From the IMG/VR virus record IMGVR_UViG_646206259_000004: 45,219 nt of DNA; one strand, given 5' to 3'. Positions within the stretch are counted from its first letter, which is position 1; every line of letters starts with the position of its first letter. The notes beneath the pieces were generated by a model, which did no database searches, had not been told where the DNA came from, and saw only the letters and a program-made list of their open reading frames with translations. This DNA comes from a virus. Taxonomy: Duplodnaviria; Heunggongvirae; Uroviricota; Caudoviricetes. The translations under genes were made by a program, and so were the position numbers. Shown here in pieces: positions 5,465 to 39,362 of this stretch.

Positions 5465-5756
5465 GCTGACCTCATTTCCCCTTAACGCCGGGGTAGCGGA
5501 ACAAAAACCTGCTGCATAGTTATTAAAGTTGAACCCTGCCGTCATGTTCTTACGCCTCGGGCTGGCTACTTAACCCCTGACCACTGCCTGGTAACTAGAA
5601 GTATTGCCCTGCATTCTGTGGGGTGGGGAGAGGGAATGAATTAAGTTTAGAAAAATGAACTTTTCAGGTCAATGTTTTTTTATCAAAACATTTTAAGCAG
5701 GCAGCTGTTAAGCCATCACCACGATGGCATACAGTTAATCAAATAGATGAGGTCGG

Positions 5757-6395
5757 TTAAATATTTTGTTGAATTTTAAAGCATACGCCCAATATGCAAG
5801 ATAGATCATCCAGCATAATTGAAGGGTAGCGAGGATTCGTGGGGACTAAAAGAATATCCGGCCCTTCTATCTCCAGTTTACGAATGACAGGTGTTGTGGT
5901 CCCTTTGGGTAAGGCAAGGACAATATTTCCTGGTTGTACGGTTCGATCGGGATCAACAAAAACTGTTGAACCATTTGGGATGGAAACTCCCCCACCAGAT
6001 GTTGACATACTGTCACTCTCTAGAACAACTGCAAAGGTATTGGCCGGGATTTCTCCGACAAGCTGCACACAAGAGGTTATTGAGGAATTTTTCATATAAT
6101 CACTCCAGCTTGCTGCCTGCTGAAGTGATAGTAGCGGAACCGTTTTTATCGGCGGTAAAGATAGATCAAGCGAATCACCTGTATTTAACTCTCCTCCATT
6201 AAGAAGCCAATTTTCGTTTACTTTCAATATTTTTGCCAGTGAACTTATGTAACGCGAGGACGGCGCTCCTCCACCGTTCATCCATTGACTTACGGAGCCT
6301 TTTGATGCGCCAGTGGCATTGACAAGGTCTTTGCCTTTCAGGTTTAGCGCATGCATACGTTGGGTTATGCGTTCAGATATTGTTTGCTTGTTCAT
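5757..6395 (-). CDS. CI-like prophage repressor (HTH plus S24 LexA-like peptidase domain)
   Basis: 212 aa; N-terminal HTH (LKGKDLVNATGASKGSVSQWMNG), C-terminal S24 autocleavage module with the SDSMS serine motif and downstream Lys (VIRKLE); divergent from the cro-like gene. Confidence 0.85.
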   Translation of the reverse strand: MNKQTISERITQRMHALNLKGKDLVNATGASKGSVSQWMNGGGAPSSRYISSLAKILKVNENWLLNGGELNTGDSLDLSLPPIKTVPLLSLQQAASWSDYMKNSSITSCVQLVGEIPANTFAVVLESDSMSTSGGGVSIPNGSTVFVDPDRTVQPGNIVLALPKGTTTPVIRKLEIEGPDILLVPTNPRYPSIMLDDLSCILGVCFKIQQNI

Positions 6396-6486
6396 GTTTT
6401 GATTTTAAAACACAGATGGTTTTGTTTCTTGACTTTCTTTGGTTTTGATTATTAAACTTTTGGCGTTCAGTTTTATGGAGCGACTC
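6396..6486. promoter_or_regulatory. Divergent immunity promoter/operator region between the repressor and cro-like gene
   Basis: 91 bp AT-rich spacer with repeated TTTTGATT motifs, a GTTTTAAAAC palindrome and a TTGACT (-35)-like hexamer followed by TATTAA. Confidence 0.45.
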
Positions 6487-6729
6487 ATGAAAAAATCAGA
6501 AGTATTAGGCTATTTTGGCGGAGTTGTTAAAACAGCCGCAGCTCTAGGAACGTCAAAAACCACAGTCAGCATGTGGGGGGAAGAGGTTCCGTGGAAATGG
6601 GCGTTGCTAATTCAGGCAGTCACTGCCGGGGCGCTCAAATATGAGTTACACATACCGACGGTTGTCATTCCCGGTTCTGATCATAATCCGCCTTCTAACC
6701 AAGGGGGGATTCATGAAAATCAAGCATGA
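6487..6729 (+). CDS. Cro-like / YdaS-like small DNA-binding protein
   Basis: Starts MKKSEVLGYFGG... after a GGAG RBS; divergent from the repressor; HTH-like segment (AAALGTSKTTVSMW). C-terminal extent uncertain because it overlaps the next gene. Confidence 0.5.
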   Translation: MKKSEVLGYFGGVVKTAAALGTSKTTVSMWGEEVPWKWALLIQAVTAGALKYELHIPTVVIPGSDHNPPSNQGGIHENQA

Positions 6730-7138
6730 ACACATCCGCATGGCGATGAATGCCTGGGCGCGTCCTGATGGCGAAAAAGTTCCGGCAGCTGGAATAACCC
6801 AGGCTTATTTTGAGTTGGGTATGACGTTTCCTGAACTGTACGACGACAGCCATCCGGAAGCCCTGGCTCGCAATACCCAGAAAATTTTCCGCTGGATAGA
6901 GAAAGACACCCCTGATGCAGTTGAAAAAATTCAGGCGTTGTTACCAGCGATCGAAAAGGCAATGCCACCTTTGCTGGTGGCCAGAATGCGCAGCCACAGT
7001 TCAGCTTATTTTCGGGAGCTGGTGGAGACGCGGGAGCGACTGGTGAGAGACGCTGATGATTTTGTCGCAGTGGCAATCGCCGGTTTCAATCAGATGAACC
7101 GTGGTGGCCCGGCAGGAAATGCTGTGGCAGTACATTGA
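6713..7138 (+). CDS. CII-like / YdaT-like regulator
   Basis: 141 aa from MKIKHEHI... with a strong AAGGGGGG RBS; second gene of the early rightward operon; N-terminus resembles Rac YdaT from memory. Confidence 0.5.
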   Translation: MKIKHEHIRMAMNAWARPDGEKVPAAGITQAYFELGMTFPELYDDSHPEALARNTQKIFRWIEKDTPDAVEKIQALLPAIEKAMPPLLVARMRSHSSAYFRELVETRERLVRDADDFVAVAIAGFNQMNRGGPAGNAVAVH

Positions 7139-7203
7139 CTGACAATAGCCATATCGAATCGCTTCCGGCAACTCGTGAGTAAAAAGATTCGGTATCAGAA
7201 GAG

Positions 7204-8280
7204 GTGAGTATGGCTAACGCCTGGCTCAGATTATGGCATGACATGCCAAATGACCCTAAGTGGCGAACAATTGCCAGGGTGTCAGGGCAGCCAATTGCAA
7301 CAGTGATGGCAGTGTATATCCACCTCCTGGTGAGCGCGTCACGAAATGTCACGCGAGGTCACATTGATGTCACGACAGAAGATTTGGCAAGTGCGCTCGA
7401 CGTGACAGAAGAGGTAATTGATTCAATTTTGCAGACGATGCAGGGGCGGGTACTTGATGGTGATTTAATCACTGGATGGGAAAAACGCCAGGTGCTTAAA
7501 GAGGACAACGGCAATATTTCGCAAACCGCAAAATCTCCTGCAGAGCGCAAGAGGGCGCAGCGAGAGAGGGAAAGAAAGCGGGAACAAAATGGCGATTGTC
7601 ACGGCGCGTCACGAAATGTCACGCACATGTCACGACGAGTCACGACAGATAAAGATACAGATAAAGATACAGATCAAGAAGATCAAAACACTATGGTCCA
7701 TGGCGTAAAAAACGCCACGAACCAGGCAGGGGATGTTCAGACCGTCAATCTTGGTCAGCCAGCAGGCACGACACCGGAAGCCGATTCAGCGTATGCGCTG
7801 AAAGCCGATTCGGGCGCTGTGCAGCAGGTGATGACCGCAAGGCCGGAGCAATCACACCAACTGCAGCAGCCCGAAGCCGATTCCGCCATTCAGCGGGAAG
7901 CCGATCGGGTAGTCCCGGAAAACACCGGGCAGTCTGTGGGACGAGTGGATTATCCGGATGTGTTCGAACAGGTCTGGCGGGAGTACCCGTTGCGTGCTGG
8001 GGCAAACCCGAAGAAATCCGCTTTCAGTGCCTGGAAGGCCAGATTACGCGAGGGGGTGCCACCAGAGGCCATGCTGGATGGCGTGAGGCGTTACGCAAGA
8101 TACTTGGCGGCTACCGGGAAAACGGGAACGGAATTTGTTCAGCGAGCGACGACGTTTTTTGGACCGGACCGGAATTTTGAGAACCCCTGGTTGCTCCCGG
8201 TAAGCGGCACGAACAACCAGCGTTGTGTGAATCATATTTCTGAACCGGATAACGAAATTCCGCCGGGCTTCAGGGGGTAA
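7204..8280 (+). CDS. Replication-initiator-like protein (O-like) containing iteron-like repeats
   Basis: 358 aa ORF in the replication slot; carries internal phased GTCAC(G) repeats and an adjacent A-rich tandem element, as lambda O carries ori. Confidence 0.5.
   Translation: MSMANAWLRLWHDMPNDPKWRTIARVSGQPIATVMAVYIHLLVSASRNVTRGHIDVTTEDLASALDVTEEVIDSILQTMQGRVLDGDLITGWEKRQVLKEDNGNISQTAKSPAERKRAQRERERKREQNGDCHGASRNVTHMSRRVTTDKDTDKDTDQEDQNTMVHGVKNATNQAGDVQTVNLGQPAGTTPEADSAYALKADSGAVQQVMTARPEQSHQLQQPEADSAIQREADRVVPENTGQSVGRVDYPDVFEQVWREYPLRAGANPKKSAFSAWKARLREGVPPEAMLDGVRRYARYLAATGKTGTEFVQRATTFFGPDRNFENPWLLPVSGTNNQRCVNHISEPDNEIPPGFRG
7335..7690. repeat. Iteron-like GTCACG repeats (two clusters, about 10 bp phasing) plus A-rich tandem repeat: putative ori
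   Basis: GTCAC at 7338, 7348, 7358, 7369 and again at 7598, 7608, 7618, 7629, 7639; followed by GATAAAGATACA x2 and an A-rich stretch (7647-7690). Confidence 0.5.
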
Positions 8281-8320
8281 GTGTTAATTTCTGGTCATGA
8301 GGTAATTTTCAGGAGGGCTT

Positions 8321-8743
8321 GTGGCAAAAGTTTTTACACAAGAAGAGCGGGAAAAAATTAAAGGACAGGTTGTTGAACTCGTACGCCAGAGTGGGCGTGA
8401 GACGTTACGGCAACTGGAAGTCAAGACAGGTGCGACAAGATATCTGATGAGCGTTCTCGCAAGAGAGCTGGTTGCCAGCGGCGATGTATGCAACTCTGGT
8501 TACGGGTTATTCCCGTCTGAACAGGCGCGTAAGGACTGGCAAAATGCCCGTAAAAAGCTCTCAAGGGCAAAGCTGAAGAAACCATCTGCGGTTGATCCGG
8601 ACCTTATCTGGTCATTACCTGACGGAGAAATACGTCGCTACGACAGGCGTCAGAACATAATCTGTCGCGAGTGCCGGAAGAGTGAAGTTATGCAGCGCAT
8701 ATTGTCGTTTTATCAGGGTGATGTTCGGTATTTATTGAAGTGA
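8321..8743 (+). CDS. Hypothetical phage protein
   Basis: 140 aa ORF with GTG start 5 nt after an AGGAGG RBS; basic C-terminus with a CRECRK motif; no family recognised. Confidence 0.5.
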   Translation: MAKVFTQEEREKIKGQVVELVRQSGRETLRQLEVKTGATRYLMSVLARELVASGDVCNSGYGLFPSEQARKDWQNARKKLSRAKLKKPSAVDPDLIWSLPDGEIRRYDRRQNIICRECRKSEVMQRILSFYQGDVRYLLK

Positions 8744-8874
8744 CGAGATTAAAGTGCATTAGTTCAGATGCAAATTGACATTTTGTGGCACAGGGTAGAG
8801 CTAGCGTGGTTGTCCGCTTTGTGCCAATAGCGGACATTGCTGGCTCATGGTATGTTAGTTTAAGGAGGCAGGTT

Positions 8875-9897
8875 ATGCCCTGTATTTCGCTGTGGTATAA
8901 TAGTTGCGCAATTGATACAAGGGAGCGTTACATCGTGAAAATTGTTTTCGAGGTTAATGGAAAGAAAGTTCCACTAAAATCTTTAAAATACATAAGCAAA
9001 AAAGATCAACTCGAAGTAATGAAAAACTGGTTCTTTGAAAACTTTGAAGATCCGGCAAATGCTTGTCCGTATGAAAGTAGAGAAGGTGGCTATGCTTACA
9101 TATATGGCGGGCCGTATGATGCGAGCGAAGAACTACAATCCATCTTCGGTCAATATGTTAAATCTGAGTATATTGAGGAATTAGTAGATGAATTACAAAC
9201 ACAATGTTTTGACTGGTCTGGAAACTCAAATAATATAGATGATTGGTACGATGATGATATCTACGACGCTGTAACGTCTTCCGGTAATCCGTATTTAAAA
9301 TTCATTGATAATATCGATAAAATAAAAAAACTTGCAAAAGATAAAACTGAACAACAGCAAAAAAACCACTTGCTTAGTTTGCTCTACACGAATGTTATTA
9401 CAGCTTTGGAAACGCTTTATGTTGAGCTATTCATTAATTCTATAGAGAAAGATGATGTCTACATAGCCAATTGTATAGAAAAAGGTAAGACTGAATTTAA
9501 AGTAAGCAAAGATATTGCTGCGTTGCCTTTCAAGGGTGAACCCATCGAGAAAATTAGGGGAGAGCTAATCAGGTCAATCAAGGAACACTTGATCAGTGCA
9601 AGCTGGCATAGCACTAAAAAGGTAATCGACCGCTATGAAGCTACATTCGATATAAAAGTACAAAAAGACTGTCCGATAGAAGCTATTGAATTGGCAACCC
9701 TCAATCGAAATCACTTAGTGCATCGTGGTGGAAAGGATAAAGAAGGGAACCTCGTAGTGATTACAGACCAGGATCTTGAAACGCTGATTGAAAATGCATC
9801 GAACCTGGCAATTATGCTCTACAACAGTTTAAATGTAGCAACGAATAAAACCACCATTTTGCAACCAGATGACAAACCGTTCATTCATGAATTTTAA
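8875..9897 (+). CDS. Hypothetical protein, gene A of AT-rich cassette (possible HEPN-like C-terminal region)
   Basis: ATG at 8875 six nt after AGGAGG; alternative in-frame GTG at 8935 downstream of an extended -10-like TGGTATAAT (8892-8900). Strongly AT-rich codon usage unlike flanking genes. C-terminal LNRNHLVHRGG fits an Rx4H HEPN-like motif (by eye only). Confidence 0.6.
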   Translation: MPCISLWYNSCAIDTRERYIVKIVFEVNGKKVPLKSLKYISKKDQLEVMKNWFFENFEDPANACPYESREGGYAYIYGGPYDASEELQSIFGQYVKSEYIEELVDELQTQCFDWSGNSNNIDDWYDDDIYDAVTSSGNPYLKFIDNIDKIKKLAKDKTEQQQKNHLLSLLYTNVITALETLYVELFINSIEKDDVYIANCIEKGKTEFKVSKDIAALPFKGEPIEKIRGELIRSIKEHLISASWHSTKKVIDRYEATFDIKVQKDCPIEAIELATLNRNHLVHRGGKDKEGNLVVITDQDLETLIENASNLAIMLYNSLNVATNKTTILQPDDKPFIHEF

Positions 9898-9912
9898 TAG
9901 CGCAGGTCATAC

Positions 9913-10914
9913 ATGGATATTCGCACACGAAAGACAAAATTTTTAGAGTCGTTAGATTCAACTGAAGTGATACGCAAAGCAGTAAGTCTCGCTATAGATT
10001 GCATTATTGATAATCATAATAGTAATGAAGATACCCCCTTAGTTATTACCAGCTATGATGATCTCTGTAGAATCCAGGTGCTAAATTATGTACAGGAGTT
10101 TTGCGAAGCTGCATTCCCTGATATGGATGAATATTACTTTAGTCCTAACATACTTCGCATCAACGGCAAGACTAGTGAAGAAGCTTGTATTAACTTAATT
10201 AAACTCTTAAGAAGTACAAAAGGCATGCTATTCTGGTCCGATGCCCCATCGTGGTTCGCTAGCCTCCCCGACGGATTATTCCATGTTGTTAACATTGATC
10301 AAAAAATCGTTACTCGCGGCCTTAATAAGAAAAACTCTAAGCCGACAATAATCAATAAAGATTACAGTGTAGATACACTACTATCAGAGCTATTTTTGAA
10401 TGGCGCACACATGGAGCAACCCAACGTACACAACGTTTCTGAGGGAAACATGAAGTTCTATGATGAATGCCATGCTGGATTAATCAGACCAATACCCGCT
10501 CCAATAGGCGCGTCATACGATGAAGAGATCACAATTAATTCTCCAGATTGGCAAAAGCTCGCGTGTGTAGCTTTACGCCGCTATCAGTCGAAGGAATGTC
10601 ATGACGGAATGCAATGGGATACAACCGATCATGGTTGGACTGATGTAATCGCGTATCCATTCGTCGAAGAAATACAATCAATGGATAATAGTGGTTATCG
10701 ACAATGTTTAGTTGGGCTGGTCACAATAAACAATTCAAATGCAAATTCTCCGTACCTATCTACCGTTTGGATACATCCATTTTATCGCAGGAGAGGGTTA
10801 TTAAGTAAGTTATGGCCAAAATTACAAGAGTTATATGGAAGTAACTTCGAAATTGAGCGACCTAATGAAAATATGAAAGCATTTCTGAAAAGTGCGAAAC
10901 ACGCAGATTACTAA
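9913..10914 (+). CDS. Hypothetical protein, gene B of AT-rich cassette (possible GNAT-like C-terminal fold)
   Basis: 333 aa ORF 15 nt downstream of gene A, same strand and AT-rich composition; C-terminal VWIHPFYRRRGLLSKLW resembles GNAT motif A (by eye only). Confidence 0.6.
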   Translation: MDIRTRKTKFLESLDSTEVIRKAVSLAIDCIIDNHNSNEDTPLVITSYDDLCRIQVLNYVQEFCEAAFPDMDEYYFSPNILRINGKTSEEACINLIKLLRSTKGMLFWSDAPSWFASLPDGLFHVVNIDQKIVTRGLNKKNSKPTIINKDYSVDTLLSELFLNGAHMEQPNVHNVSEGNMKFYDECHAGLIRPIPAPIGASYDEEITINSPDWQKLACVALRRYQSKECHDGMQWDTTDHGWTDVIAYPFVEEIQSMDNSGYRQCLVGLVTINNSNANSPYLSTVWIHPFYRRRGLLSKLWPKLQELYGSNFEIERPNENMKAFLKSAKHADY

Positions 10915-11230
10915 TTTATGAATCAGTCTGTGGAGTTAGGGTTGGTGTCAACAAGTAGGGTAAGAGCCTCAACGTGATGCTATGCCGACCTGCTCCCTGA
11001 GAATTCACACAGAAGGCTGCTAGCAATGTCTGCAGATCGCTCAAAGCGGACTAGAAGGTTAGCTTGCGTCGGACTTGGCGTATTTAAAGAAGTGCTGGTG
11101 GTGACTGGTTGTTGTGTTCCATTTCTACAGAACAAAATCACAGAAACTATACCCAATAGTTATATTGAATCAATGATGAGACAGCCTCATATTTATCAGA
11201 ACTGGTGTACGTCCAATACAGGAGGTTGTC

Positions 11231-11320
11231 GTGCTGGTTCTCAAATGTGCGCTAGCTATTGCGGCTGTAATGGCAATTTATTGTCTTGCTGTTGTTCTTA
11301 TGGATCGCCTTTCTGATTGA
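11231..11320 (+). CDS. Candidate small hydrophobic peptide (29 aa)
   Basis: GTG start 5 nt after a perfect AGGAGG; VLVLKCALAIAAVMAIYCLAVVLMDRLSD is a single predicted transmembrane helix; overlaps the 3' end of the 96 aa Cys-rich ORF in another frame. Confidence 0.3.
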   Translation: MLVLKCALAIAAVMAIYCLAVVLMDRLSD

Positions 11321-11474
11321 TTTTATATTGGCGAGGTGACGGGAGTTAAGTAGAATTGCTGCGGGTGCTTGAGGCTATCTGCCTCAGGCATGAACACCAA
11401 AGGCAGATAGAGAAAAGCCCCAGTTAATATTACGCGTCCTGCAAGACGCTTAACATTAATCTGAGGCTCAATCT

Positions 11475-11687
11475 ATGAACGGCAAATCTAGGTTAGCCTC
11501 TTACGTGCCGAAAGGCAAGGAGAAGCAGGCTATGAAGCAGCAAAAGGCGATGTTAATCGCCCTGATCGTCATCTGTTTAACCGTCATAGTGACGGCACTG
11601 GTAACGAGGAAAGACCTCTGCGAGGTACGAATCCGAACCGGCCAGACGGAGGTCGCTGTCTTCACAGTTTACGAACCTGAGGAGTAA
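11475..11687 (+). CDS. mok: Mok-like reading frame (N-terminally extended Hok frame)
   Basis: 70 aa ORF containing Hok in frame, as in mokC/hokC loci. Confidence 0.55.
   Translation: MNGKSRLASYVPKGKEKQAMKQQKAMLIALIVICLTVIVTALVTRKDLCEVRIRTGQTEVAVFTVYEPEE
11532..11687 (+). CDS. hok: Hok/Gef family type I toxin
   Basis: 51 aa MKQQKAMLIALIVICLTVIVTALVTRKDLCEVRIRTGQTEVAVFTVYEPEE, a near-match to the Hok/Gef/RelF family; mRNA-like context with upstream inverted repeats and a downstream fold-back/terminator. Confidence 0.85.
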   Translation: MKQQKAMLIALIVICLTVIVTALVTRKDLCEVRIRTGQTEVAVFTVYEPEE

Positions 11688-11755
11688 GAGACCCGGCGAG
11701 GGAGAAATCCCTCGCCACCTCTGATGTGTCAGGCATCCTCAACGCACCCGCACGT

Positions 11756-11782
11756 AACCCGCTTCGGCGGGTTTTGTTTTTT
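11756..11782 (+). terminator. Intrinsic terminator / fbi-like 3' hairpin of the hok mRNA
   Basis: AACCCGCTTCGGCGGGTTTTGTTTTTT: GC stem with short loop followed by a T-run. Confidence 0.6.
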
Positions 11783-11854
11783 CCTGGCATTCTGGTTTAC
11801 AATTCGCACGCCAGCCTGAACAACTGGCACCTGCTGCGCCAGCAGAGACAACCG

Positions 11855-12133
11855 ATGGCGCACGATACCAAATTACACAATTCTGATGATTCTGCCGTCT
11901 TTGCCAGCAGGCACGGGCGGCGTTCCCGCACTTTCAAATCTGACTGGTTCCAGCATCCCCCATGCACTGAAGAACAGGCCGAGTGGCTAATTCAGTGCTA
12001 CCGCAGACACGGATACGAGATTAAGAAAGCCCTCAGCCTCGATTATCGTCACTGGATAATCTCCGTCAGGCTTCCTTACTCCGAACGATCACCGCGTCCG
12101 TCCCGCACATTCCAGCAACGCATCTGGAGGTAA
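11855..12133 (+). CDS. Hypothetical protein (92 aa)
   Basis: ATG downstream of the hok terminator; its stop lies 2 nt before the DUF968 GTG start, suggesting translational coupling; the 135 aa track ORF probably over-extends into the hok 3' UTR. Confidence 0.4.
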   Translation: MAHDTKLHNSDDSAVFASRHGRRSRTFKSDWFQHPPCTEEQAEWLIQCYRRHGYEIKKALSLDYRHWIISVRLPYSERSPRPSRTFQQRIWR

Positions 12134-12134
12134 C

Positions 12135-13181
12135 GTGCGAGTATTACTTCGACCTGTTCTGGTACCGGAACTCGGGCTGGTGATCGTTAAGCCGGGCCGT
12201 GAATCCATGCCGGTATTCCACAATACCCGGGTACTGGTGGAGCCGGAACCGAAAAGCATGCGTAATCTGCCGTCCGGGGTTGTTCCTGCCGTTCGCCAGC
12301 CGCTAGTGGAAGACAAAACATTGCTGCCGTTTTTCAGTAACGCACGGGTGATTCGTGCTGCTGGTGGTGCTGGTGCATTGTCTGACTGGCTGTTGCGCCA
12401 TATTAAATCCTGCCAGTGGCCACACGGCGATTATCATCACAGCGAAACCGTCATTCACCGTTATGGTACCGGCGCAATGGTGTTGTGCTGGCACTGCGAC
12501 AACCAGCTGCGTGACCAGACATCCGAATCACTCGAGCAACTTGCTCATCAAAACCTGTCAGCATGGATGATTGACGTCATACTCCATGCAATGAATGGCT
12601 CGCAGGAACGGGAATTATCGCTGGCTGAATTATCCTGGTGGGCGGTCCGCAATCAGGTGGCGGACGCGCTACCGGAAGCGGTATTACGTCGTTCGCTGGG
12701 GTTGCGTGCGGAAAAAATCCGCTCAATGTACCGTGAAAGCGACATCGTACCGGGAGAGCAGACCGCCACCAGCATACTGAAGCAGCGCACAAAAAATCTT
12801 GCGCCGCTGCCTCACGCCCACCAGCAAAACCCGCCACAGGAAGAGACGGTGGTCAGCATTGCCGTTGATCCTGAGTCTCCGGAATCTTTCATGAAACGAC
12901 CTAAACGTCGCCGCTGGGTTAACGAGAAATACACACGCTGGGTGAAGACACAGCCGTGTGCGTGTTGTGGTAAGCCAGCCGACGATCCCCATCACCTGAT
13001 TGGTCATGGTCAGGGCGGAATGGGGACAAAATCTCACGATATTTTCACGCTACCGCTGTGTCGGGAGCATCACAACGAGCTTCATGCGGATCCTCTGGCG
13101 TTCGAAGAAAAGCATGGTTCTCAGGTTGATTTAATTTTTCGTTTTCTTGATCACGCCTTTGCAACTGGCGTGCTTGGGTAA
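12135..13181 (+). CDS. DUF968-like protein (YdfU-like) with C-terminal HNH-like zinc-binding motif
   Basis: 348 aa; GTG start after GGAGG; C-terminal CACCGKPADDPHHLIGHG...LPLCREHHNELH; size and position upstream of rusA match Qin ydfU. Confidence 0.65.
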   Translation: MRVLLRPVLVPELGLVIVKPGRESMPVFHNTRVLVEPEPKSMRNLPSGVVPAVRQPLVEDKTLLPFFSNARVIRAAGGAGALSDWLLRHIKSCQWPHGDYHHSETVIHRYGTGAMVLCWHCDNQLRDQTSESLEQLAHQNLSAWMIDVILHAMNGSQERELSLAELSWWAVRNQVADALPEAVLRRSLGLRAEKIRSMYRESDIVPGEQTATSILKQRTKNLAPLPHAHQQNPPQEETVVSIAVDPESPESFMKRPKRRRWVNEKYTRWVKTQPCACCGKPADDPHHLIGHGQGGMGTKSHDIFTLPLCREHHNELHADPLAFEEKHGSQVDLIFRFLDHAFATGVLG

Positions 13182-13193
13182 AAGAGGTGACTG

Positions 13194-13568
13194 ATGCTCA
13201 TAGATTTGGTTTTACCTTACCCGCCGACGGTGAACACTTACTGGCGACGCCGTGGCAGCACATATTTTATCTCGGAGGAGGGAAAGCGTTATCGCCGGGC
13301 TGTGGCGCTTATTGTTCGCCAGCAGCGGCTGAAATTAAGCCTGTCCGGAAGGCTGGCGATAAAGGTGATTGCAGAGCCACCGGATAAGCGTCGTCGCGAC
13401 CTGGACAATATCCTGAAAGCACCGCTGGATGCGCTGACGCATGCGGGAGTGTTAATGGACGATGAGCAGTTTGATGAAATCAATATCGTTCGTGGTCAGC
13501 CAGTATCTGGTGGACGTATGGGGGTGAAGATTTACCCCATAATGCATGAAGAGCAGGTCAAAAAATGA
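13194..13568 (+). CDS. rusA: Holliday junction resolvase RusA
   Basis: 124 aa; LPYPPTVNTYWRRRG... and RRRDLDNILKAPLDAL motifs characteristic of RusA. Confidence 0.85.
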   Translation: MLIDLVLPYPPTVNTYWRRRGSTYFISEEGKRYRRAVALIVRQQRLKLSLSGRLAIKVIAEPPDKRRRDLDNILKAPLDALTHAGVLMDDEQFDEINIVRGQPVSGGRMGVKIYPIMHEEQVKK

Positions 13569-14386
13569 AACTGGAAGATTTACCGAAATACTACTCCCCA
13601 AAATCCCCTGGCCTGACCGATGCATCGGCCTCAACGTCAAAAGATGCGCTGAGTATCACTGATGTGATGGCCGCGCAGGGCATGACACAGAATCGGGCTG
13701 AGATGGGGTTTTCTGCGTTCCTGGGGAAAATGGGCATCAGTATGAATGACAGGGCGCGGGCAACAGAATTACTGGCAGATTATGCACTCAGTCGGTGCGA
13801 TCGTGTGGCGGCGTTGAGAAAACTTCCGGCAGAAATAAAACCGGTAGTGATGCGCATTATGGCTTCGTATGCGTTTGAAGATTATGCCCGTAGCGCGGCG
13901 AGCAAAAAACAGTGCCCTTGCTGTCACGGAAAAAAATTTATTGAAAGCGAGGTTTTTACAAACAAGATCCAGTATCCGGATGGTAAGCCACCAGTGTGGG
14001 CAAAGTGCACAAAAGGCGTGTATCCGTCTTACTGGGAAGAATGGAAAAAAGTCAGGGAGGTGGTAAAAGTTGCCTGTCCGGAGTGTGGCGGAAAGGGTGA
14101 GGTTTCCACCGCCTGTAAGGATTGCCGTGGGCGTGGTGTCGCCATTCATCGTGAAGAGTCGGTAAAACGTGGTATGCCTGTTATCAGAGATTGCCAGCGT
14201 TGTGGTGGTCGTGGCTGTGAAAGGCTGCCATCAACGGAGGCATTTAATGCCATATGCAAAGTGACGAGTGCTATCACGCTTGATACGTGGAAAAAATCAG
14301 TGAAACGCTTTTACGATACGTTGGTGGTTCGGTTTGACATTGAAGAGGCATGGGCGGAGCGGCAGTTAAAGAGGGTAACGCGATAG
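13565..14386 (+). CDS. Late gene antiterminator Q
   Basis: 273 aa, multiple CxxC zinc-finger motifs (CPCCHGK, CPECGGKG, CKDCRGRG, CQRCGGRG); overlaps the rusA stop; followed by promoter/terminator-like signals. Confidence 0.8.
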   Translation: MKLEDLPKYYSPKSPGLTDASASTSKDALSITDVMAAQGMTQNRAEMGFSAFLGKMGISMNDRARATELLADYALSRCDRVAALRKLPAEIKPVVMRIMASYAFEDYARSAASKKQCPCCHGKKFIESEVFTNKIQYPDGKPPVWAKCTKGVYPSYWEEWKKVREVVKVACPECGGKGEVSTACKDCRGRGVAIHREESVKRGMPVIRDCQRCGGRGCERLPSTEAFNAICKVTSAITLDTWKKSVKRFYDTLVVRFDIEEAWAERQLKRVTR

Positions 14387-19518: not shown

Positions 19519-20145
19519 ATGAACCGCGTACTGTGCGTGGTCATCATTGCCCTGCTGGTGGCCTGTGGTGCGCTTAGTCTGGGGCTGAATCATTACCGTG
19601 ATAACGCCATTACCTACAAAGCCCAGCGCGACAAAAATGTCAGAGAACTGAAGCTGGCGAACGCGGCAATTACTGACATGNNNNNNNNNNNNNNNNNNNN
19701 NNNNNNNNNNNNNNNNNNNNNNNNNNNNNNNNNNNNNNNNNNNNNNNNNNNNNNNNNNNNNNNNNNNNNNNNNNNNNNNNNNNNNNNNNNNNNNNNNNNN
19801 NNNNNNNNNNNNNNNNNNNNNNNNNNNNNNNNNNNNNNNNNNNNNNNNNNNNNNNNNNNNNNNNNNNNNNNNNNNNNNNNNNNNNNNNNNNNNNNNNNNN
19901 NNNNNNNNNNNNNNNNNNNNNNNNNNNNNNNNNNNNNNNNNNNNNNNNNNNNNNNNNNNNNNNNNNNNNNNNNNNNNNNNNNNNNNNNNNNNNNNNNNNN
20001 NNNNNNNNNNNNNNNNNNNNNNNNNNNNNNNNNNNNNNNNNNNNNNNNNNNNNNNNNNNNNNNNNNNNNNNNNNCGCGACTGATAATAATGCAAAAACAA
20101 CTTGAAGGGGCACAGCTATACATTCGAGAGCAATGCCTCAGATAA
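19519..20145 (+). CDS. Rz: Rz i-spanin (interior N-masked; embedded Rz1 not visible)
   Basis: N-terminus ...[31 protein letters not shown] and C-terminus [20 protein letters not shown] match lambda Rz; 19681-20074 is N-masked. Confidence 0.8.
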
Positions 20146-21576: not shown

Positions 21577-23117
21577 NNNNNNNNNNNNNNNNNNNNNNNN
21601 NNNNNNNNNNNNNNNNNNNNNNNNNNNNNNNNNNNNNNNNNNNNNNNNNNNNNNNNNNNNNNNNNNNNNNNNNNNNNNNNNNNNNNNNNNNNNNNNNNNN
21701 NNNNNNNNNNNNNNNNNNNNNNNNNNNNNNNNNNNNNNNNNNNNNNNNNNNNNNNNNNNNNNNNNNNNNNNNNNNNNNNNNNNNNNNNNNNNNNNNNNNN
21801 NNNNNNNNNNNNNNNNNNNNNNNNNNNNNNNNNNNNNNNNNNNNNNNNNNNNNNNNNNNNNNNNNNNNNNNNNNNNNNNNNNNNNNNNNNNNNNNNNNNN
21901 NNNNNNNNNNNNNNNNNNNNNNNNNNNNNNNNNNNNNNNNNNNNNNNNNNNNNNNNNNNNNNNNNNNNNNNNNNNNNNNNNNNNNNNNNNNNNNNNNNNN
22001 NNNNNNNNNNNNNNNNNNNNNNNNNNNNNNNNNNNNNNNNNNNNNNNNNNNNNNNNNNNNNNNNNNNNNNNNNNNNNNNNNNNNNNNNNNNNNNNNNNNN
22101 NNNNNNNNNNNNNNNNNNNNNNNNNNNNNNNNNNNNNNNNNNNNNNNNNNNNNNNNNNNNNNNNNNNNNNNNNNNNNNNNNNNNNNNNNNNNNNNNNNNN
22201 NNNNNNNNNNNNNNNNNNNNNNNNNNNNNNNNNNNNNNNNNNNNNNNNNNNNNNNNNNNNNNNNNNNNNNNNNNNNNNNNNNNNNNNNNNNNNNNNNNNN
22301 NNNNNNNNNNNNNNNNNNNNNNNNNNNNNNNNNNNNNNNNNNNNNNNNNNNNNNNNNNNNNNNNNNNNNNNNNNNNNNNNNNNNNNNNNNNNNNNNNNNN
22401 NNNNNNNNNNNNNNNNNNNNNNNNNNNNNNNNNNNNNNNNNNNNNNNNNNNNNNNNNNNNNNNNNNNNNNNNNNNNNNNNNNNNNNNNNNNNNNNNNNNN
22501 NNNNNNNNNNNNNNNNNNNNNNNNNNNNNNNNNNNNNNNNNNNNNNNNNNNNNNNNNNNNNNNNNNNNNNNNNNNNNNNNNNNNNNNNNNNNNNNNNNNN
22601 NNNNNNNNNNNNNNNNNNNNNNNNNNNNNNNNNNNNNNNNNNNNNNNNNNNNNNNNNNNNNNNNNNNNNNNNNNNNNNNNNNNNNNNNNNNNNNNNNNNN
22701 NNNNNNNNNNNNNNNNNNNNNNNNNNNNNNNNNNNNNNNNNNNNNNNNNNNNNNNNNNNNNNNNNNNNNNNNNNNNNNNNNNNNNNNNNNNNNNNNNNNN
22801 NNNNNNNNNNNNNNNNNNNNNNNNNNNNNNNNNNNNNNNNNNNNNNNNNNNNNNNNNNNNNNNNNNNNNNNNNNNNNNNNNNNNNNNNNNNNNNNNNNNN
22901 NNNNNNNNNNNNNNNNNNNNNNNNNNNNNNNNNNNNNNNNNNNNNNNNNNNNNNNNNNNNNNNNNNNNNNNNNNNNNNNNNNNNNNNNNNNNNNNNNNNN
23001 NNNNNNNNNNNNNNNNNNNNNNNNNNNNNNNNNNNNNNNNNNNNNNNNNNNNNNNNNNNNNNNNNNNNNNNNNNNNNNNNNNNNNNNNNNNNNNNNNNNN
23101 NNNNNNNNNNNNNNNNA

Positions 23118-24766: not shown

Positions 24767-25934
24767 NNNNNNNNNNNNNNNNNNNNNNNNNNNNNNNNNN
24801 NNNNNNNNNNNNNNNNNNNNNNNNNNNNNNNNNNNNNNNNNNNNNNNNNNNNNNNNNNNNNNNNNNNNNNNNNNNNNNNNNNNNNNNNNNNNNNNNNNNN
24901 NNNNNNNNNNNNNNNNNNNNNNNNNNNNNNNNNNNNNNNNNNNNNNNNNNNNNNNNNNNNNNNNNNNNNNNNNNNNNNNNNNNNNNNNNNNNNNNNNNNN
25001 NNNNNNNNNNNNNNNNNNNNNNNNNNNNNNNNNNNNNNNNNNNNNNNNNNNNNNNNNNNNNNNNNNNNNNNNNNNNNNNNNNNNNNNNNNNNNNNNNNNN
25101 NNNNNNNNNNNNNNNNNNNNNNNNNNNNNNNNNNNNNNNNNNNNNNNNNNNNNNNNNNNNNNNNNNNNNNNNNNNNNNNNNNNNNNNNNNNNNNNNNNNN
25201 NNNNNNNNNNNNNNNNNNNNNNNNNNNNNNNNNNNNNNNNNNNNNNNNNNNNNNNNNNNNNNNNNNNNNNNNNNNNNNNNNNNNNNNNNNNNNNNNNNNN
25301 NNNNNNNNNNNNNNNNNNNNNNNNNNNNNNNNNNNNNNNNNNNNNNNNNNNNNNNNNNNNNNNNNNNNNNNNNNNNNNNNNNNNNNNNNNNNNNNNNNNN
25401 NNNNNNNNNNNNNNNNNNNNNNNNNNNNNNNNNNNNNNNNNNNNNNNNNNNNNNNNNNNNNNNNNNNNNNNNNNNNNNNNNNNNNNNNNNNNNNNNNNNN
25501 NNNNNNNNNNNNNNNNNNNNNNNNNNNNNNNNNNNNNNNNNNNNNNNNNNNNNNNNNNNNNNNNNNNNNNNNNNNNNNNNNNNNNNNNNNNNNNNNNNNN
25601 NNNNNNNNNNNNNNNNNNNNNNNNNNNNNNNNNNNNNNNNNNNNNNNNNNNNNNNNNNNNNNNNNNNNNNNNNNNNNNNNNNNNNNNNNNNNNNNNNNNN
25701 NNNNNNNNNNNNNNNNNNNNNNNNNNNNNNNNNNNNNNNNNNNNNNNNNNNNNNNNNNNNNNNNNNNNNNNNNNNNNNNNNNNNNNNNNNNNNNNNNNNN
25801 NNNNNNNNNNNNNNNNNNNNNNNNNNNNNNNNNNNNNNNNNNNNNNNNNNNNNNNNNNNNNNNNNNNNNNNNNNNNNNNNNNNNNNNNNNNNNNNNNNNN
25901 NNNNNNNNNNNNNNNNNNNNNNNNNNNNNNNNNT

Positions 25935-30639: not shown

Positions 30640-33324
30640 TCTTGTTATTGACCTGAGTCTGGATGCTGTCCGTTTCGATGAGCAGATGAGCCGGGTAAGG
30701 CGTCATTTTTCAGGTCTGGATACCGACGCCAGAAAAACCGCCAGTGCTGTTGAACAGGGCCTGAGCCGCCAGGCGCTGGCTGCACAAAAAGCCGGGATTT
30801 CCGTCGGGCAGTATAAAGCGGCCATGCGAACCCTGCCCGCACAGTTTACGGATATCGCCACGCAGCTTGCCGGTGGTCAGAATCCCTGGTTGATCCTGCT
30901 GCAACAGGGCGGTCAGGTGAAGGACTCCTTCGGCGGGATGATCCCCATGTTCAGGGGGCTTGCCGGTGCGATCACCCTGCCGATGGTCGGGGTCACCTCG
31001 CTGGCGGTGGCGACAGGTGCGCTGGCGTACGCCTGGTACCAGGGCGACGCCACGCTTTCAGAATTTAATAAAACGCTGGTCCTTTCCGGCAATCAGGCCG
31101 GACTGACTGCCGATCGTATGCTGACGCTCTCAAGAGCCGGGCAGGCAGCAGGGCTGACGTTTAACCAGGCGAGAGAGTCACTGGCAGCCTTGGTGAATGC
31201 CGGTGTGCGTGGTGGTGAACAGTTTGATGCCATCAACCAGAGTGTCGCGCGTTTTGCGTCTGCATCCGGTGTGGAGGTGGATNNNNNNNNNNNNNNNNNN
31301 NNNNNNNNNNNNNNNNNNNNNNNNNNNNNNNNNNNNNNNNNNNNNNNNNNNNNNNNNNNNNNNNNNNNNNNNNNNNNNNNNNNNNNNNNNNNNNNNNNNN
31401 NNNNNNNNNNNNNNNNNNNNNNNNNNNNNNNNNNNNNNNNNNNNNNNNNNNNNNNNNNNNNNNNNNNNNNNNNNNNNNNNNNNNNNNNNNNNNNNNNNNN
31501 NNNNNNNNNNNNNNNNNNNNNNNNNNNNNNNNNNNNNNNNNNNNNNNNNNNNNNNNNNNNNNNNNNNNNNNNNNNNNNNNNNNNNNNNNNNNNNNNNNNN
31601 NNNNNNNNNNNNNNNNNNNNNNNNNNNNNNNNNNNNNNNNNNNNNNNNNNNNNNNNNNNNNNNNNNNNNNNNNNNNNNNNNNNNNNNNNNNNNNNNNNNN
31701 NNNNNNNNNNNNNNNNNNNNNNNNNNNNNNNNNNNNNNNNNNNNNNNNNNNNNNNNNNNNNNNNNNNNNNNNNNNNNNNNNNNNNNNNNNNNNNNNNNNN
31801 NNNNNNNNNNNNNNNNNNNNNNNNNNNNNNNNNNNNNNNNNNNNNNNNNNNNNNNNNNNNNNNNNNNNNNNNNNNNNNNNNNNNNNNNNNNNGTTCCGTA
31901 ACGTGACGGCAGAGCAGATTGCGTATGTTGCACAGCTGCAGCGTTCCGGAGACGAGGCCGGGGCATTGCAGGCGGCGAACGATATCGCCACGAAAGGCTT
32001 TGATGAGCAGACCCGTCGCCTGAAAGAAAACATGGGAACACTGGAGACCTGGGCGGATAAAACAGGGAAGGCATTCAAATCGATGTGGGATGCCATTCTG
32101 GATATCGGTCGTCCGGAATCCTCAGCGGATATGCTCGCCAGTGCGCAGAAGGCATTTGATGAGGCGGATAAAAAATGGCAGTGGTACCAGAGCCGGAGCC
32201 AGCGCCGGGGAAAGACCTCCTCTTTTCGTGCGAACCTTCAGGGGGCATGGGATGACCGGGAAAATGCCCGTCTGGGTCTGGCAGCGGCCACGCTGCAGTC
32301 GGATATGGAAAAAGCCGGTGAACTGGCGGCAAGGGACAGGGCTGAGCGTGAGTCGTCACAGCTGAAGTATACCGGAGAGGCGCAGAAGGCGTATGAGCGC
32401 CTGCAGACGCCGCTGGATAAATATACCGCCCGTCAGAAAGAGCTGAATAAGGCCCTGAAAGACGGAAAAATCCTGCAGGCGGATTACAACACGCTGATGG
32501 CGTCGGCAAAAAAGGATTATGAATCGACGCTGAAAAAGCCGTCAGGTGTGAAGGTGTCTGCCGGTGAGCGCCAGGAAGACCGGGCGCATGCAGCCCTGCT
32601 GGCGCTTGAAACCGAGCTCAGGACGCTGGAAAAACACAGCGGTGTGAATGAGAAAATCAGCCAGCAGCGCCGGGATTTATGGGAAGCGGAAAGTCAGTAT
32701 GTGGTCCTGAAAGAGGCCGCCACGAAACGGCAGTTATCTGAGCAGGAAAAATCCCTGCTGGCTCATGAGAAAGAGACGCTGGAGTACAAACGCCAGCTGG
32801 CTGAGCTGGGAGACAAGATTGAACACCAGAAGCGGCTGAATGAGCTGGCACAGCAGGCGGCGCGGTTTGAACAGCAGCAAAGCGCGAAGCAGGCGGCAAT
32901 CAGCGCAAAAGCCCGCGGCCTCACCGACCGTCAGGCGCAGCGGGAGTCGGAAGAGCAGCGCCTTCGTGAGGTGTACGGTGATAATCCGGCTGCGCTGGCG
33001 AAGGCCACATCGGCACTGAAGAACACCTGGTCTGCGGAGGAGCAGCTTCGTGGAAGCTGGATGGCCGGGATGAAGTCCGGCTGGGGAGAGTGGGCGGAAA
33101 GTGCGACGGACAGTTTTTCGCAGGTTAAAAGTGTGGCCACGCAGACCTTTGACGGTATTGCACAGAATATGGCGGCGATGCTGACCGGCAGCGAACAGAA
33201 CTGGCGGGGATTCACCCGTTCCGTGCTGTCCATGATGACAGAAATTCTGCTTAAGCAGGCAATGGTGGGGATTGTCGGGAGTATCGGCAGCGCCATTGGC
33301 GGGGCTGTTGGTGGCGGCGCATCC
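30620..33324 (+). CDS. H: Tape measure protein H (two internal/3' stretches N-masked; continues beyond 33324)
   Basis: N-terminus MSQPVGDLVIDLSLDAVRFDEQMSRVRRHFSG... and later segments (AEQIAYVAQLQRSGDEAGALQAAN..., ...LLKQAMVGIVGSIGSAIGGAVGGGAS) match lambda gpH. The frame differs on the two sides of the 31283-31892 mask, so mask length is not codon-faithful. Confidence 0.9.
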
Positions 33325-34932
33325 NNNNNNNNNNNNNNNNNNNNNNNNNNNNNNNNNNNNNNNNNNNNNNNNNNNNNNNNNNNNNNNNNNNNNNNNNNNN
33401 NNNNNNNNNNNNNNNNNNNNNNNNNNNNNNNNNNNNNNNNNNNNNNNNNNNNNNNNNNNNNNNNNNNNNNNNNNNNNNNNNNNNNNNNNNNNNNNNNNNN
33501 NNNNNNNNNNNNNNNNNNNNNNNNNNNNNNNNNNNNNNNNNNNNNNNNNNNNNNNNNNNNNNNNNNNNNNNNNNNNNNNNNNNNNNNNNNNNNNNNNNNN
33601 NNNNNNNNNNNNNNNNNNNNNNNNNNNNNNNNNNNNNNNNNNNNNNNNNNNNNNNNNNNNNNNNNNNNNNNNNNNNNNNNNNNNNNNNNNNNNNNNNNNN
33701 NNNNNNNNNNNNNNNNNNNNNNNNNNNNNNNNNNNNNNNNNNNNNNNNNNNNNNNNNNNNNNNNNNNNNNNNNNNNNNNNNNNNNNNNNNNNNNNNNNNN
33801 NNNNNNNNNNNNNNNNNNNNNNNNNNNNNNNNNNNNNNNNNNNNNNNNNNNNNNNNNNNNNNNNNNNNNNNNNNNNNNNNNNNNNNNNNNNNNNNNNNNN
33901 NNNNNNNNNNNNNNNNNNNNNNNNNNNNNNNNNNNNNNNNNNNNNNNNNNNNNNNNNNNNNNNNNNNNNNNNNNNNNNNNNNNNNNNNNNNNNNNNNNNN
34001 NNNNNNNNNNNNNNNNNNNNNNNNNNNNNNNNNNNNNNNNNNNNNNNNNNNNNNNNNNNNNNNNNNNNNNNNNNNNNNNNNNNNNNNNNNNNNNNNNNNN
34101 NNNNNNNNNNNNNNNNNNNNNNNNNNNNNNNNNNNNNNNNNNNNNNNNNNNNNNNNNNNNNNNNNNNNNNNNNNNNNNNNNNNNNNNNNNNNNNNNNNNN
34201 NNNNNNNNNNNNNNNNNNNNNNNNNNNNNNNNNNNNNNNNNNNNNNNNNNNNNNNNNNNNNNNNNNNNNNNNNNNNNNNNNNNNNNNNNNNNNNNNNNNN
34301 NNNNNNNNNNNNNNNNNNNNNNNNNNNNNNNNNNNNNNNNNNNNNNNNNNNNNNNNNNNNNNNNNNNNNNNNNNNNNNNNNNNNNNNNNNNNNNNNNNNN
34401 NNNNNNNNNNNNNNNNNNNNNNNNNNNNNNNNNNNNNNNNNNNNNNNNNNNNNNNNNNNNNNNNNNNNNNNNNNNNNNNNNNNNNNNNNNNNNNNNNNNN
34501 NNNNNNNNNNNNNNNNNNNNNNNNNNNNNNNNNNNNNNNNNNNNNNNNNNNNNNNNNNNNNNNNNNNNNNNNNNNNNNNNNNNNNNNNNNNNNNNNNNNN
34601 NNNNNNNNNNNNNNNNNNNNNNNNNNNNNNNNNNNNNNNNNNNNNNNNNNNNNNNNNNNNNNNNNNNNNNNNNNNNNNNNNNNNNNNNNNNNNNNNNNNN
34701 NNNNNNNNNNNNNNNNNNNNNNNNNNNNNNNNNNNNNNNNNNNNNNNNNNNNNNNNNNNNNNNNNNNNNNNNNNNNNNNNNNNNNNNNNNNNNNNNNNNN
34801 NNNNNNNNNNNNNNNNNNNNNNNNNNNNNNNNNNNNNNNNNNNNNNNNNNNNNNNNNNNNNNNNNNNNNNNNNNNNNNNNNNNNNNNNNNNNNNNNNNNN
34901 NNNNNNNNNNNNNNNNNNNNNNNNNNNNNNNT

Positions 34933-38800: not shown

Positions 38801-39362
38801 GGCATTTTCCCTGACACCGGACGGGCGGCTGACGGCGAAAAATGCCGATATCAGCGGTAACGTGAATGCGAACTCCGGGACGCTCAACAACGTCACGATT
38901 AACGAGAACTGTCGGGTTCTGGGAAAATTGTCCGCCAACCAGATTGAAGGCGATCTCGTTAAAACAGTGGGCAAAGCTTTCCCCCGGGACTCCCGTGCAC
39001 CGGAACGGTGGCCATCAGGGACCATCACCGTCAGGGTTTATGACGATCAGCCGTTTGACCGGCAGATTGTTATTCCGGCGGTGGCATTCAGCGGCGCTAA
39101 ACATGAGCGGGAGAATAACGATATTTATTCGTCATGCCGCCTGATAGTACGGAAAAACGGTGCTGAAATTTATAACCGTACCGCGCTGGATAATACGCTG
39201 ATTTACAGTGGTGTTATTGATATGCCAGCTGGTCGCGGCCACATGACGCTGGAGTTTTCGGTGTCAGCATGGCTGGTGAATAACTGGTATCCCACAGCAA
39301 GTATCAGCGATTTGCTGGTTGTGGTGATGAAGAAAGCCACCGCAGGCATCAGTATCAGCTGA
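35882..39362 (+). CDS. J: Central tail fibre / host specificity protein J (interior N-masked)
   Basis: First ~190 aa nearly identical to lambda gpJ ([33 protein letters not shown]...); post-mask segment ...[44 protein letters not shown]... and C-terminal receptor-binding region are J-like. Frame differs across the 36459-37996 mask. Confidence 0.9.

Follow-up and report, generated by a model that had tools for sequence, protein, structure and literature searches.

A putative replication origin of phased hexamer repeats within the initiator gene of a lambdoid prophage

Where a lambdoid prophage starts its replication is the question raised by one gene in the DNA stretch IMGVR_UViG_646206259_000004, in which a short motif recurs about once per helical turn. 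This stretch of 45,219 nucleotides, here called the window, is an Escherichia coli or Shigella lambdoid prophage, and identical copies of its replication initiator gene are present in E. coli ATCC 11775 and in one Shigella flexneri genome. A preliminary description had reported clusters of four and five GTCAC(G) copies with a period of about 10 base pairs (bp) inside this gene, the second cluster being followed by a tandem repeat and an A-rich stretch. Both clusters are present, at 7338-7374 and 7598-7644, and the tandem was found as 2.9 copies of ACAGATAAAGAT. We consider it highly probable from the sequence that the region 7338-7690 is the vegetative replication origin of the prophage, located within the gene of its own initiator. 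The kind of origin would be a textbook one, and the origin of this particular family appears to be undescribed. The elements of the region are:

7210-8280, plus strand: replication initiator gene, 356 amino acids from the ATG at 7210; the open reading frame (ORF) opens with a GTG at 7204
7338-7374, plus strand: array 1, with GTCACG at 7338, GTCACG at 7348, GTCACA at 7358 and GTCACG at 7369
7401-7406, minus strand: single inverted hexamer (CGTGAC on the plus strand), 27 bp after array 1
7541-7592, plus strand: purine-rich tract coding for the basic helix AERKRAQRERERKREQ, immediately 5' of array 2
7598-7644, plus strand: array 2, with five GTCACG at 7598, 7608, 7618, 7629 and 7639
7645-7690, plus strand: A-rich tandem element, ACAGATAAAGAT in 2.9 copies, then GATCAAGAAGATCAAAAC with GATC at 7672 and 7681

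The hexamers are spaced by 10, 10 and 11 bp in array 1 and by 10, 10, 11 and 10 bp in array 2, and approximately 260 bp lie between the two arrays. Tandem Repeats Finder reports a period of 10 with 5.0 copies at 7597-7647. Phased pairs of the form GTCAC-N4-7-GTCAC occur seven times in the 45-kb window, all of them within the two arrays, compared to 0.21 expected in shuffled sequence, and none of 100 shuffles reached seven. No significant sigma-70-like promoter was found in the region, one weak antisense match over array 2 being at chance level, and an Rfam scan of 6300-8900 gave no match to an RNA element.

Array 1 codes for residues 43-55 (ASRNVTRGHIDVT), which comprise the last part of helix 3 in the N-domain and the loop after it, and array 2 codes for residues 130-145 in a linker that is disordered in the structural model. 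As a period of 10 or 11 bp is not a multiple of three, the hexamer is read in different frames, namely as (S)R, VT, GH or CH. This is an argument that the repeat is a DNA repeat and that the peptides encoded by it, ASRNVTRGHIDVTT and ASRNVTHMSRRVTT, are a by-product. The SRNVT/VTT repeats named in the preliminary description are thus indeed encoded, though as a consequence of the DNA repeat.

To what extent the hexamers are maintained as DNA can be read from the relatives. We used a set of 22 loci of the GTCAC type from hosts with a GC content between 0.34 and 0.69, and a codon alignment of these 22. In approximately 20 of them GTCAC occurs at +128, +138, +148 and +159 relative to the start codon, and one copy of array 1 is missing in three (L009, L011 and L019 in our numbering of loci). 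Most of the relatives also possess the inverted copy, GTGAC, at +192/193, and array 2 comprises three to five copies from near +388 onward. Codons overlapping with the hexamers are frozen: V47 (GTC), T48 (ACG), G50 (GGT), V54 (GTC), S141 (TCA) and V144 (GTC) use the same codon in 22 of 22 loci, H51 (CAC) in 21 of 21 and S44 (TCA) in 21 of 22. Invariant neighbours use three to five codons, as seen for R49 with CGA in 8, CGT in 7, CGC in 6 and CGG in 1 of the loci. If the third base lies in a hexamer the fraction of the commonest codon is 0.977, compared to 0.536 in the 49 other columns with a conserved residue, a difference that was reached by none of 100,000 permutations. The spacers between the hexamers are free to vary and the hexamers are invariant; a logo of 168 sites contains information only at GTCAC(G), and neighbouring sites are 10 bp apart 94 times and 11 bp apart 30 times. 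Even in hosts with a GC content of 0.6-0.69 the codons TCA, CGA, GAT and AAA persist. The constraint on the repeats acts at the DNA level, not at that of the peptide. Conservation of the iterons in homologues, which had been proposed as a check, is therefore present in the GTCAC-type relatives in the form of identical offsets and frozen codons.

Scanning one genome per species for distant relatives led to 46 loci. Divergent subfamilies possess another hexamer at the same two places and with the same phasing. Besides GTCACG there is a GTAACG class (L025, L029, L036, L039), a CGAACG(C) class with nine loci and a GTGACG class (L045), and all four types share the 3' ACG. According to our own count both arrays carry the same type in 36 out of 36 loci that have both arrays. 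In L029, a locus of the GTAACG type, the inverted copy switches too (GACGTTAC); the position reads GACGTTACAG, which is the inverted GTAAC. The hexamer type changes together with the initiator subfamily.

The family itself is broad. The N-terminal 160 residues have 882 homologues that are 60-70% identical, with hosts such as Pseudomonas, Bordetella, Achromobacter, Chromobacterium and Klebsiella among others, and relatives are found across Gamma- and Betaproteobacteria and in some Alphaproteobacteria. Scanning IMG/VR for three phased hexamers yielded at least 120 viral contigs; 80 of these were examined. The N-domain motif occurs exactly 116 nucleotides upstream of the triple hexamer in 48 of these 80, and two arrays are present in 54 of the 80, most often 260 bp apart. 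Of the 32 contigs without the motif at this place, many carry arrays in other initiator-like ORFs, some of them clearly related. We also observed phased GTCACG in divergent ORFs resembling replisome organizers (L092 at 2398-2450, L096 at 5755-5800, L110 at 2561-2620, L113 and L128). The arrays in such divergent ORFs (IMG/VR loci L053-L132) have a basic helix before them and a purine-rich tandem after them, composed of n copies of GAATCC, AGAGAAG or ACAGAT. In L113 and L128 the first array is found elsewhere in the N-domain and the second one approximately 306-318 bp downstream.

The A-rich element that follows array 2 is the other conserved component. Tandem Repeats Finder reports a period of 12 with 2.9 copies (ACAGATAAAGAT, 95% matches) at 7645-7679. 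Between 7630 and 7719 the GC content goes down to 0.37 and the AT skew is approximately +0.5 to +0.6, with an excess of A on the coding strand; the purine-rich part at 7540-7599 has an AT skew of 0.69 and a GC skew of 0.47. The segment 7648-7688 is the least stable 40-bp duplex in the gene with -44.7 kcal/mol, compared to a mean of -58.8 and a standard deviation of 3.8; this is 3.7 standard deviations from the gene mean, and within the whole window the segment ranks in the top 1%. A tandem is found after array 2 in all hexamer classes, mostly as two to nine copies of (A/C)AGATA units, and a few loci, e.g. L029, have degenerate GATAAGA/GAAGAG variants. The tandems use GAT, AAA and ACA codons even at a GC content of 0.69, and the 40 bp after the last repeat of array 2 are 60-85% AT in every hexamer class and in all 22 GTCAC-type relatives, including those from hosts with a GC content of 0.6-0.69. 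The tandem at 7645-7690 is a putative DNA unwinding element, and array 2 is the putative core initiator-binding array of the origin. The purine-rich tract, or the basic helix encoded by it, may have a role next to array 2. The A-rich element also contains two GATC (Dam) sites, at 7672-7675 and 7681-7684, which are absent from the variants L001 and L002 and so are probably not essential.

L001 and L002 are close relatives with an N-half identity of 84-88%, in which every hexamer is kept and the spacers between the hexamers differ. They possess two extra hexamers in array 1 (six copies), introduced by a 21-bp in-frame insertion, and a different C-half followed by a gene for 'replication protein P'. 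The initiator gene is mosaic, its N-half and C-half recombining separately in E. coli. Matches found by BLAST span either 1-464 or 482-1075 of the query, which places the junction at 7667-7685, and in the alignment the identity to alternative C-halves collapses past GATAAAGATACAGATAAAGA. Two features adjoin the tandem on its 3' side:

7667-7685, no strand: mosaic junction directly 3' of the tandem, where similarity to alternative C-halves starts or stops
7694-7724, no strand: imperfect inverted repeat, TGGTCCATGGCGT / ACGCCACGAACCA, 13 nucleotides with a 5-nucleotide loop, 3' of the A-rich stretch

The lambda record contains two misc_recomb junctions in the A-rich stretch of ori-lambda (L050 1158-1167, corresponding to lambda 39157-39166), and their relative position is the same as that of the junction at 7667-7685. 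The inverted repeat may correspond to a palindrome that lies to the right of lambda ori and is not annotated in the lambda record; the correspondence is weak. On the minus strand it reads as a 13-pair hairpin with a weak T-run, i.e. it is terminator-like and antisense, directly after the A-rich element. As a conserved part of the region the palindrome was rejected: the best hairpin in 38 loci barely beats random windows, with a median control fraction of 0.25 and a fraction of at most 0.05 in 4 of the 38.

The assignment of the gene as a replication initiator, already made in the preliminary description, was confirmed. Along its whole length, 1-356 of 356, the protein matches PHROG 3729 ('replication initiation protein') with an E-value of 5e-258. 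In relatives its gene is directly followed by one that is P-like, DnaC/IstB-like, weakly G39P-like or of unknown kind, or by a gene for a DnaB helicase. Translation probably starts at the ATG at 7210, which yields 356 residues in accordance with the length of PHROG 3729 and the annotation of phage Tritos; the 358 residues given earlier, which start at the GTG at 7204, are less likely. Phage records label the gene as 'DNA replication protein O', 'replisome organiser' or 'primosomal protein I'. The name of the E. coli protein in the Prokaryotic Genome Annotation Pipeline is 'phage replisome organizer', and NCBI entries are mostly called 'hypothetical protein' or 'phage replisome organizer'. The 'replisome organizer' families PHROG 4880 and 5968 match weakly (E-values 4e-6 and 2e-4). 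A Pfam scan of the protein gave no domain match, including Phage_rep_O, the replisome-organizer domains and PF17948.

An AlphaFold model of residues 1-169 was built on an alignment of 69 sequences, and the C-terminal fragment was modelled separately. In these models residues 1-98 form a confident helical, winged-helix-like N-domain, followed by a basic helix (residues 110-130) and then by disorder. Array 2 and the tandem code for the disordered linker, approximately residues 130-245, which leads to a small confident helical C-domain (approximately residues 250-320) and a flexible DnaT-like tail. Both arrays consequently fall where the protein is little constrained, one in a loop and the other in a disordered linker. 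Homologues of the C-domain are joined to other N-domains (HTH_36, PF14297, PF07120), and the overall pattern is the modular lambdoid one, in which the N-half is specific to the origin and the C-half to the partner. Searching PDB sequences with a profile of the N-domain gave no match, and a fold search with the C-domain gave no meaningful neighbour and none that is DnaT-like, the top match being HIV matrix with an E-value of about 1.

How the helicase might be brought to such an origin is suggested by the end of the protein:

8215-8277, plus strand: C-terminal tail NQRCVNHISEPDNEIPPGFRG, nearly identical in sequence to the final 21 residues of E. coli DnaT

The pattern shared with DnaT is VN.(I/V)SEPD..IPPGFRG. 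With phmmer the tail matches the PDB chains 6aep, 2ru8 and 9zbt_D (DnaT residues 159-179) with E-values between 1.4e-4 and 2.8e-3; the DnaT family NF002770 of NCBIfam is matched with 7e-4, the whole protein reaching 19 bits at a cut-off of 201. The same tail ends several homologues with otherwise different C-domains (P0032, P0049, P0106, L029). DnaT is part of the PriA-PriB-DnaT preprimosome that leads to loading of DnaB (PMC13377028). In sister variants of the gene the Pfam DnaT-like ssDNA-binding domain PF17948 is present, and a P-like gene lies downstream in the sister variants L001, L002 and L006. No helicase or loader gene (P, DnaC, DnaB) was found between the initiator and antiterminator Q in the window (8321-14386). 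Together with the DnaT-like tail this makes it probable that the helicase is recruited through the host primosome or the DnaB-DnaC machinery. The tail may represent a recruitment peptide for the host primosome or helicase, acting by mimicry, and we infer that the host helicase would be recruited through it.

Taken as an origin, the region could operate as follows. Derepression would lead to rightward transcription and thereby to synthesis of the initiator, whose winged-helix-like N-domain, possibly together with the basic helix, would occupy adjacent hexamers along the same face of the helix. The initiator would oligomerise over array 2 and possibly bridge to array 1 at a distance of approximately 260 bp. 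The resulting strain might open the adjacent A-rich (A/C)AGATA tandem at 7645-7690, the C-terminal part would bring the host DnaB helicase, and theta replication would start at the opened tandem.

This arrangement resembles the lambda origin, to which the preliminary description had likened it. In lambda the iterons lie in gene O, and the Stx phages 933W and P27 are organized likewise (PMC7466680). As in lambda, the proposed origin is situated midway along the initiator gene, at the border between a DNA-binding N-half and a partner-specific C-half, and consists of a repeat array followed by a promoter-distal A-rich stretch with purine asymmetry; the lambda iterons are found at +348 to +432 of gene O (NC_001416) and are followed by GACACAAAAGACAC...AAAAGAAAAAAGAAAAG. 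The A-rich stretch codes for a linker rich in Asp, Thr and Lys in both cases (GDTKDTITKEKRKD in lambda, TTDKDTDKDTDQED in the window), the copy number of the repeats varies through in-frame insertions as in lambda and the Stx phages, and the gene likewise follows cI, cro and cII-like genes. The layout of iterons and an AT-rich element inside an initiator gene is thus supported. The protein has no homology to lambda O (BLASTP E-value 0.085; hhalign probability 0.04; no Pfam Phage_rep_O), and whereas the lambda iterons have 18 bp and are approximately 20-24 bp apart, the sites considered here have a core of 6 bp and are direct repeats at 10-11 bp. The lambda iterons are also dyad-symmetric. Lambda has one array, the window has two at a distance of 260 bp plus an inverted copy, and unlike in lambda there is no gene for a P-type loader directly downstream. 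The comparison supports a lambda-type origin layout in a protein family that is unrelated to lambda O.

Other replicons share single aspects of this organization. In the lactococcal temperate phages TP901-1 and Tuc2009 the origin consists of direct repeats in the rep gene, to which the replication protein binds with its N-terminal part; their hosts and sequences differ from those of the window prophage, and the likeness is a lead. Winged-helix initiators of iteron plasmids (RepA of pPS10, pi of R6K) bind direct repeats next to an AT-rich region. The plasmid iterons have 17-22 bp, are spaced by approximately two helical turns and are usually located outside the rep gene, often with DnaA boxes, unlike the core of 6 bp every 10-11 bp that lies inside a gene without a DnaA box. 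Phage P4 has a bipartite ori/crr with two separated clusters of a short octamer, and its initiator is a primase-helicase. The initiator of the window is not, and the likeness to P4 consists in two separated clusters of short repeats. In SPP1, oriL lies in gene 38 with AB boxes that are bound by G38P and an adjacent AT-rich unwinding element (PMC5737612). This is in agreement with an origin of short boxes and an AT-rich element within the gene of a replisome organizer that is not an AAA+ protein; however, a profile comparison (hhalign) finds no similarity to G38P, and in SPP1 genes for a loader (G39P) and a helicase (G40P) of the phage follow downstream, neither of which is encoded by the window prophage. 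As to DnaT, only its last 21-24 residues match and the window protein has no PF17948 hit. DnaT works at abandoned forks via PriA and PriB (PMC13377028) and not at a sequence-specific origin, whereas the initiator of the window is proposed to be origin-specific.

Several observations weigh against placing the origin here. Array 1 is missing in three loci (L031, L033, L040), and it may therefore have a role other than initiation; the same loci keep degenerate repeats and the tandem at the position of array 2, which points to array 2 and the tandem as the core. No DnaA box (TTWTNCACA) lies within the gene, the nearest being at 8332 without any enrichment. The A-rich stretch is modest with its GC content of 0.37, nearby intergenic DNA contains equally unstable stretches, and a palindrome-like element after it is not consistently conserved. 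The fold search with the N-domain yielded weak, generic winged-helix matches (FixK2, CRP, MarR), all with E-values above 0.1, and the helix-turn-helix region is near-identical across subfamilies with different hexamers. The proposed recruitment of the helicase rests on a match of 21 residues. A literature search on the origin of the family, GTCACG iterons, Rac oriJ and the Stx 'Eru' types found nothing on this protein.

The most tangible other explanation is that the arrays are sites at which the initiator or another phage protein exerts control, with the origin located elsewhere; in a weaker form this would concern array 1 only. Such control could, for example, consist in autoregulation of the rightward operon, a roadblock to transcription or a copy-number control in which the arrays pair. 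There are two separate arrays, array 1 is far from the AT-rich stretch and dispensable in some lineages, up to six copies of the segment per E. coli genome make cross-talk possible, and extra iterons with accessory roles are known from Stx phages (PMC7466680). We still consider such a control function unlikely, as array 2 is always joined to the conserved A-rich tandem and lies at the boundary of the N- and C-domain as in lambda, there is no other phased cluster in the 45-kb window, and no alternative candidate with iterons and AT-rich DNA was seen near the replication genes.

It would also be conceivable that the hexamers belong to a host protein or serve another phage function than initiation (packaging, recombination hotspots underlying the mosaicism, binding of a nucleoid protein). 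The mosaic junction directly 3' of the arrays and the presence of GTCACG arrays in more divergent initiator-like genes can be read in this way, but the hexamer type tracks the initiator lineage within the same host classes and does so in both arrays together. The downstream neighbours were compared and differ, leaving the initiator as the only gene compared that is constantly linked to the arrays, and in the divergent contigs the arrays are again found within initiator-like ORFs. This renders a function unrelated to the initiator very improbable. Selection on the protein, with the SRNVT and VT motifs being relevant and the DNA periodicity a by-product, could be argued from an alignment of 16 proteins, in which S44, N46, V47, T48, R49, G50, H51, V54, T55, S134, R135, V137 and T138 are invariant; in the alignment of 69 sequences several residues fall to at least 90%, with R135 and V144 at 90% or above. 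The out-of-frame period of 10 or 11 bp speaks against this, as do the frozen synonymous positions in the hexamers next to conserved residues with three to five codons, the retention of TCA, CGA, GAT and AAA in GC-rich hosts and the location of the segments in a loop and a disordered linker. Other subfamilies swap the peptides entirely and keep the DNA phasing. Selection as protein is contradicted by the synonymous-site test and appears scarcely credible, and an origin within the initiator gene remains the explanation that we prefer.

If the initiator reads the hexamers, it is of interest which part of it does so. No obvious differences in the recognition helix were found between the hexamer classes, and the basic helix varies between them without a clean code. 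The segment encoded by array 1 is the only clearly class-specific part of an otherwise near-invariant DNA-binding domain, its loop peptide being SRNVTRGHxDVT with GTCACG and SNATERGRTQ with CGAACG. One might speculate that this loop helps to read the hexamer, so that binding sites and specificity determinant would be the same DNA, a self-referential specificity cassette; we regard this as quite doubtful. If true, a change of the iteron type would switch the reader at the same moment, which would explain the easy rise of new, mutually compatible pairs of origin and initiator.

The genes surrounding the initiator are those of a lambdoid early region:

5757-6395, minus strand: cI-like repressor
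6439-6729: DicC/Cro-like gene
6713-7138: YdaT/cII-like gene
8321-8743: DUF977 / Ren-like gene
downstream of the Ren-like gene: two accessory ORFs, then DUF968, RusA and antiterminator Q

The two accessory ORFs, at 8785-9897 and 9913-10914, are inserted after the replication genes, and phage Tritos has a different gene at this position. One of them has a weak match to a HEPN/RES N-terminal domain (E-value 2e-4) and belongs to PHROG 17908 of unknown function; the other one has a weak match to a GNAT acetyltransferase (PHROG 16994). Both ORFs resemble accessory or defence cargo. Six runs of N occur among the late genes of the window (19681-20074, 21577-23116, 24767-25933, 31283-31892, 33325-34931 and 36459-37996), and ORFs listed across them are not meaningful.

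The gene is present, as a whole or in half, in 2699 out of 5426 complete E. coli genomes, and the 371-bp origin segment 7330-7700 in 2036 out of 5426, a single genome containing as many as six copies. Several prophages in one host may therefore have the same specificity of initiator and iterons, which could permit cross-activation or competition. This replicon type is very common, and no origin has been mapped for it. The proposed origin would provide an annotation rule for thousands of prophages, consisting of the hexamer class, the two arrays and a GATA-type unwinding element, and would predict which co-resident prophages have a common initiator specificity, with the possibility of cross-activation or competition. 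The match of the tail to DnaT suggests a route for initiation without a phage-encoded loader. The four hexamer types would further represent four natural specificity classes in which the reading of a 6-bp site by a small winged-helix initiator could be studied.

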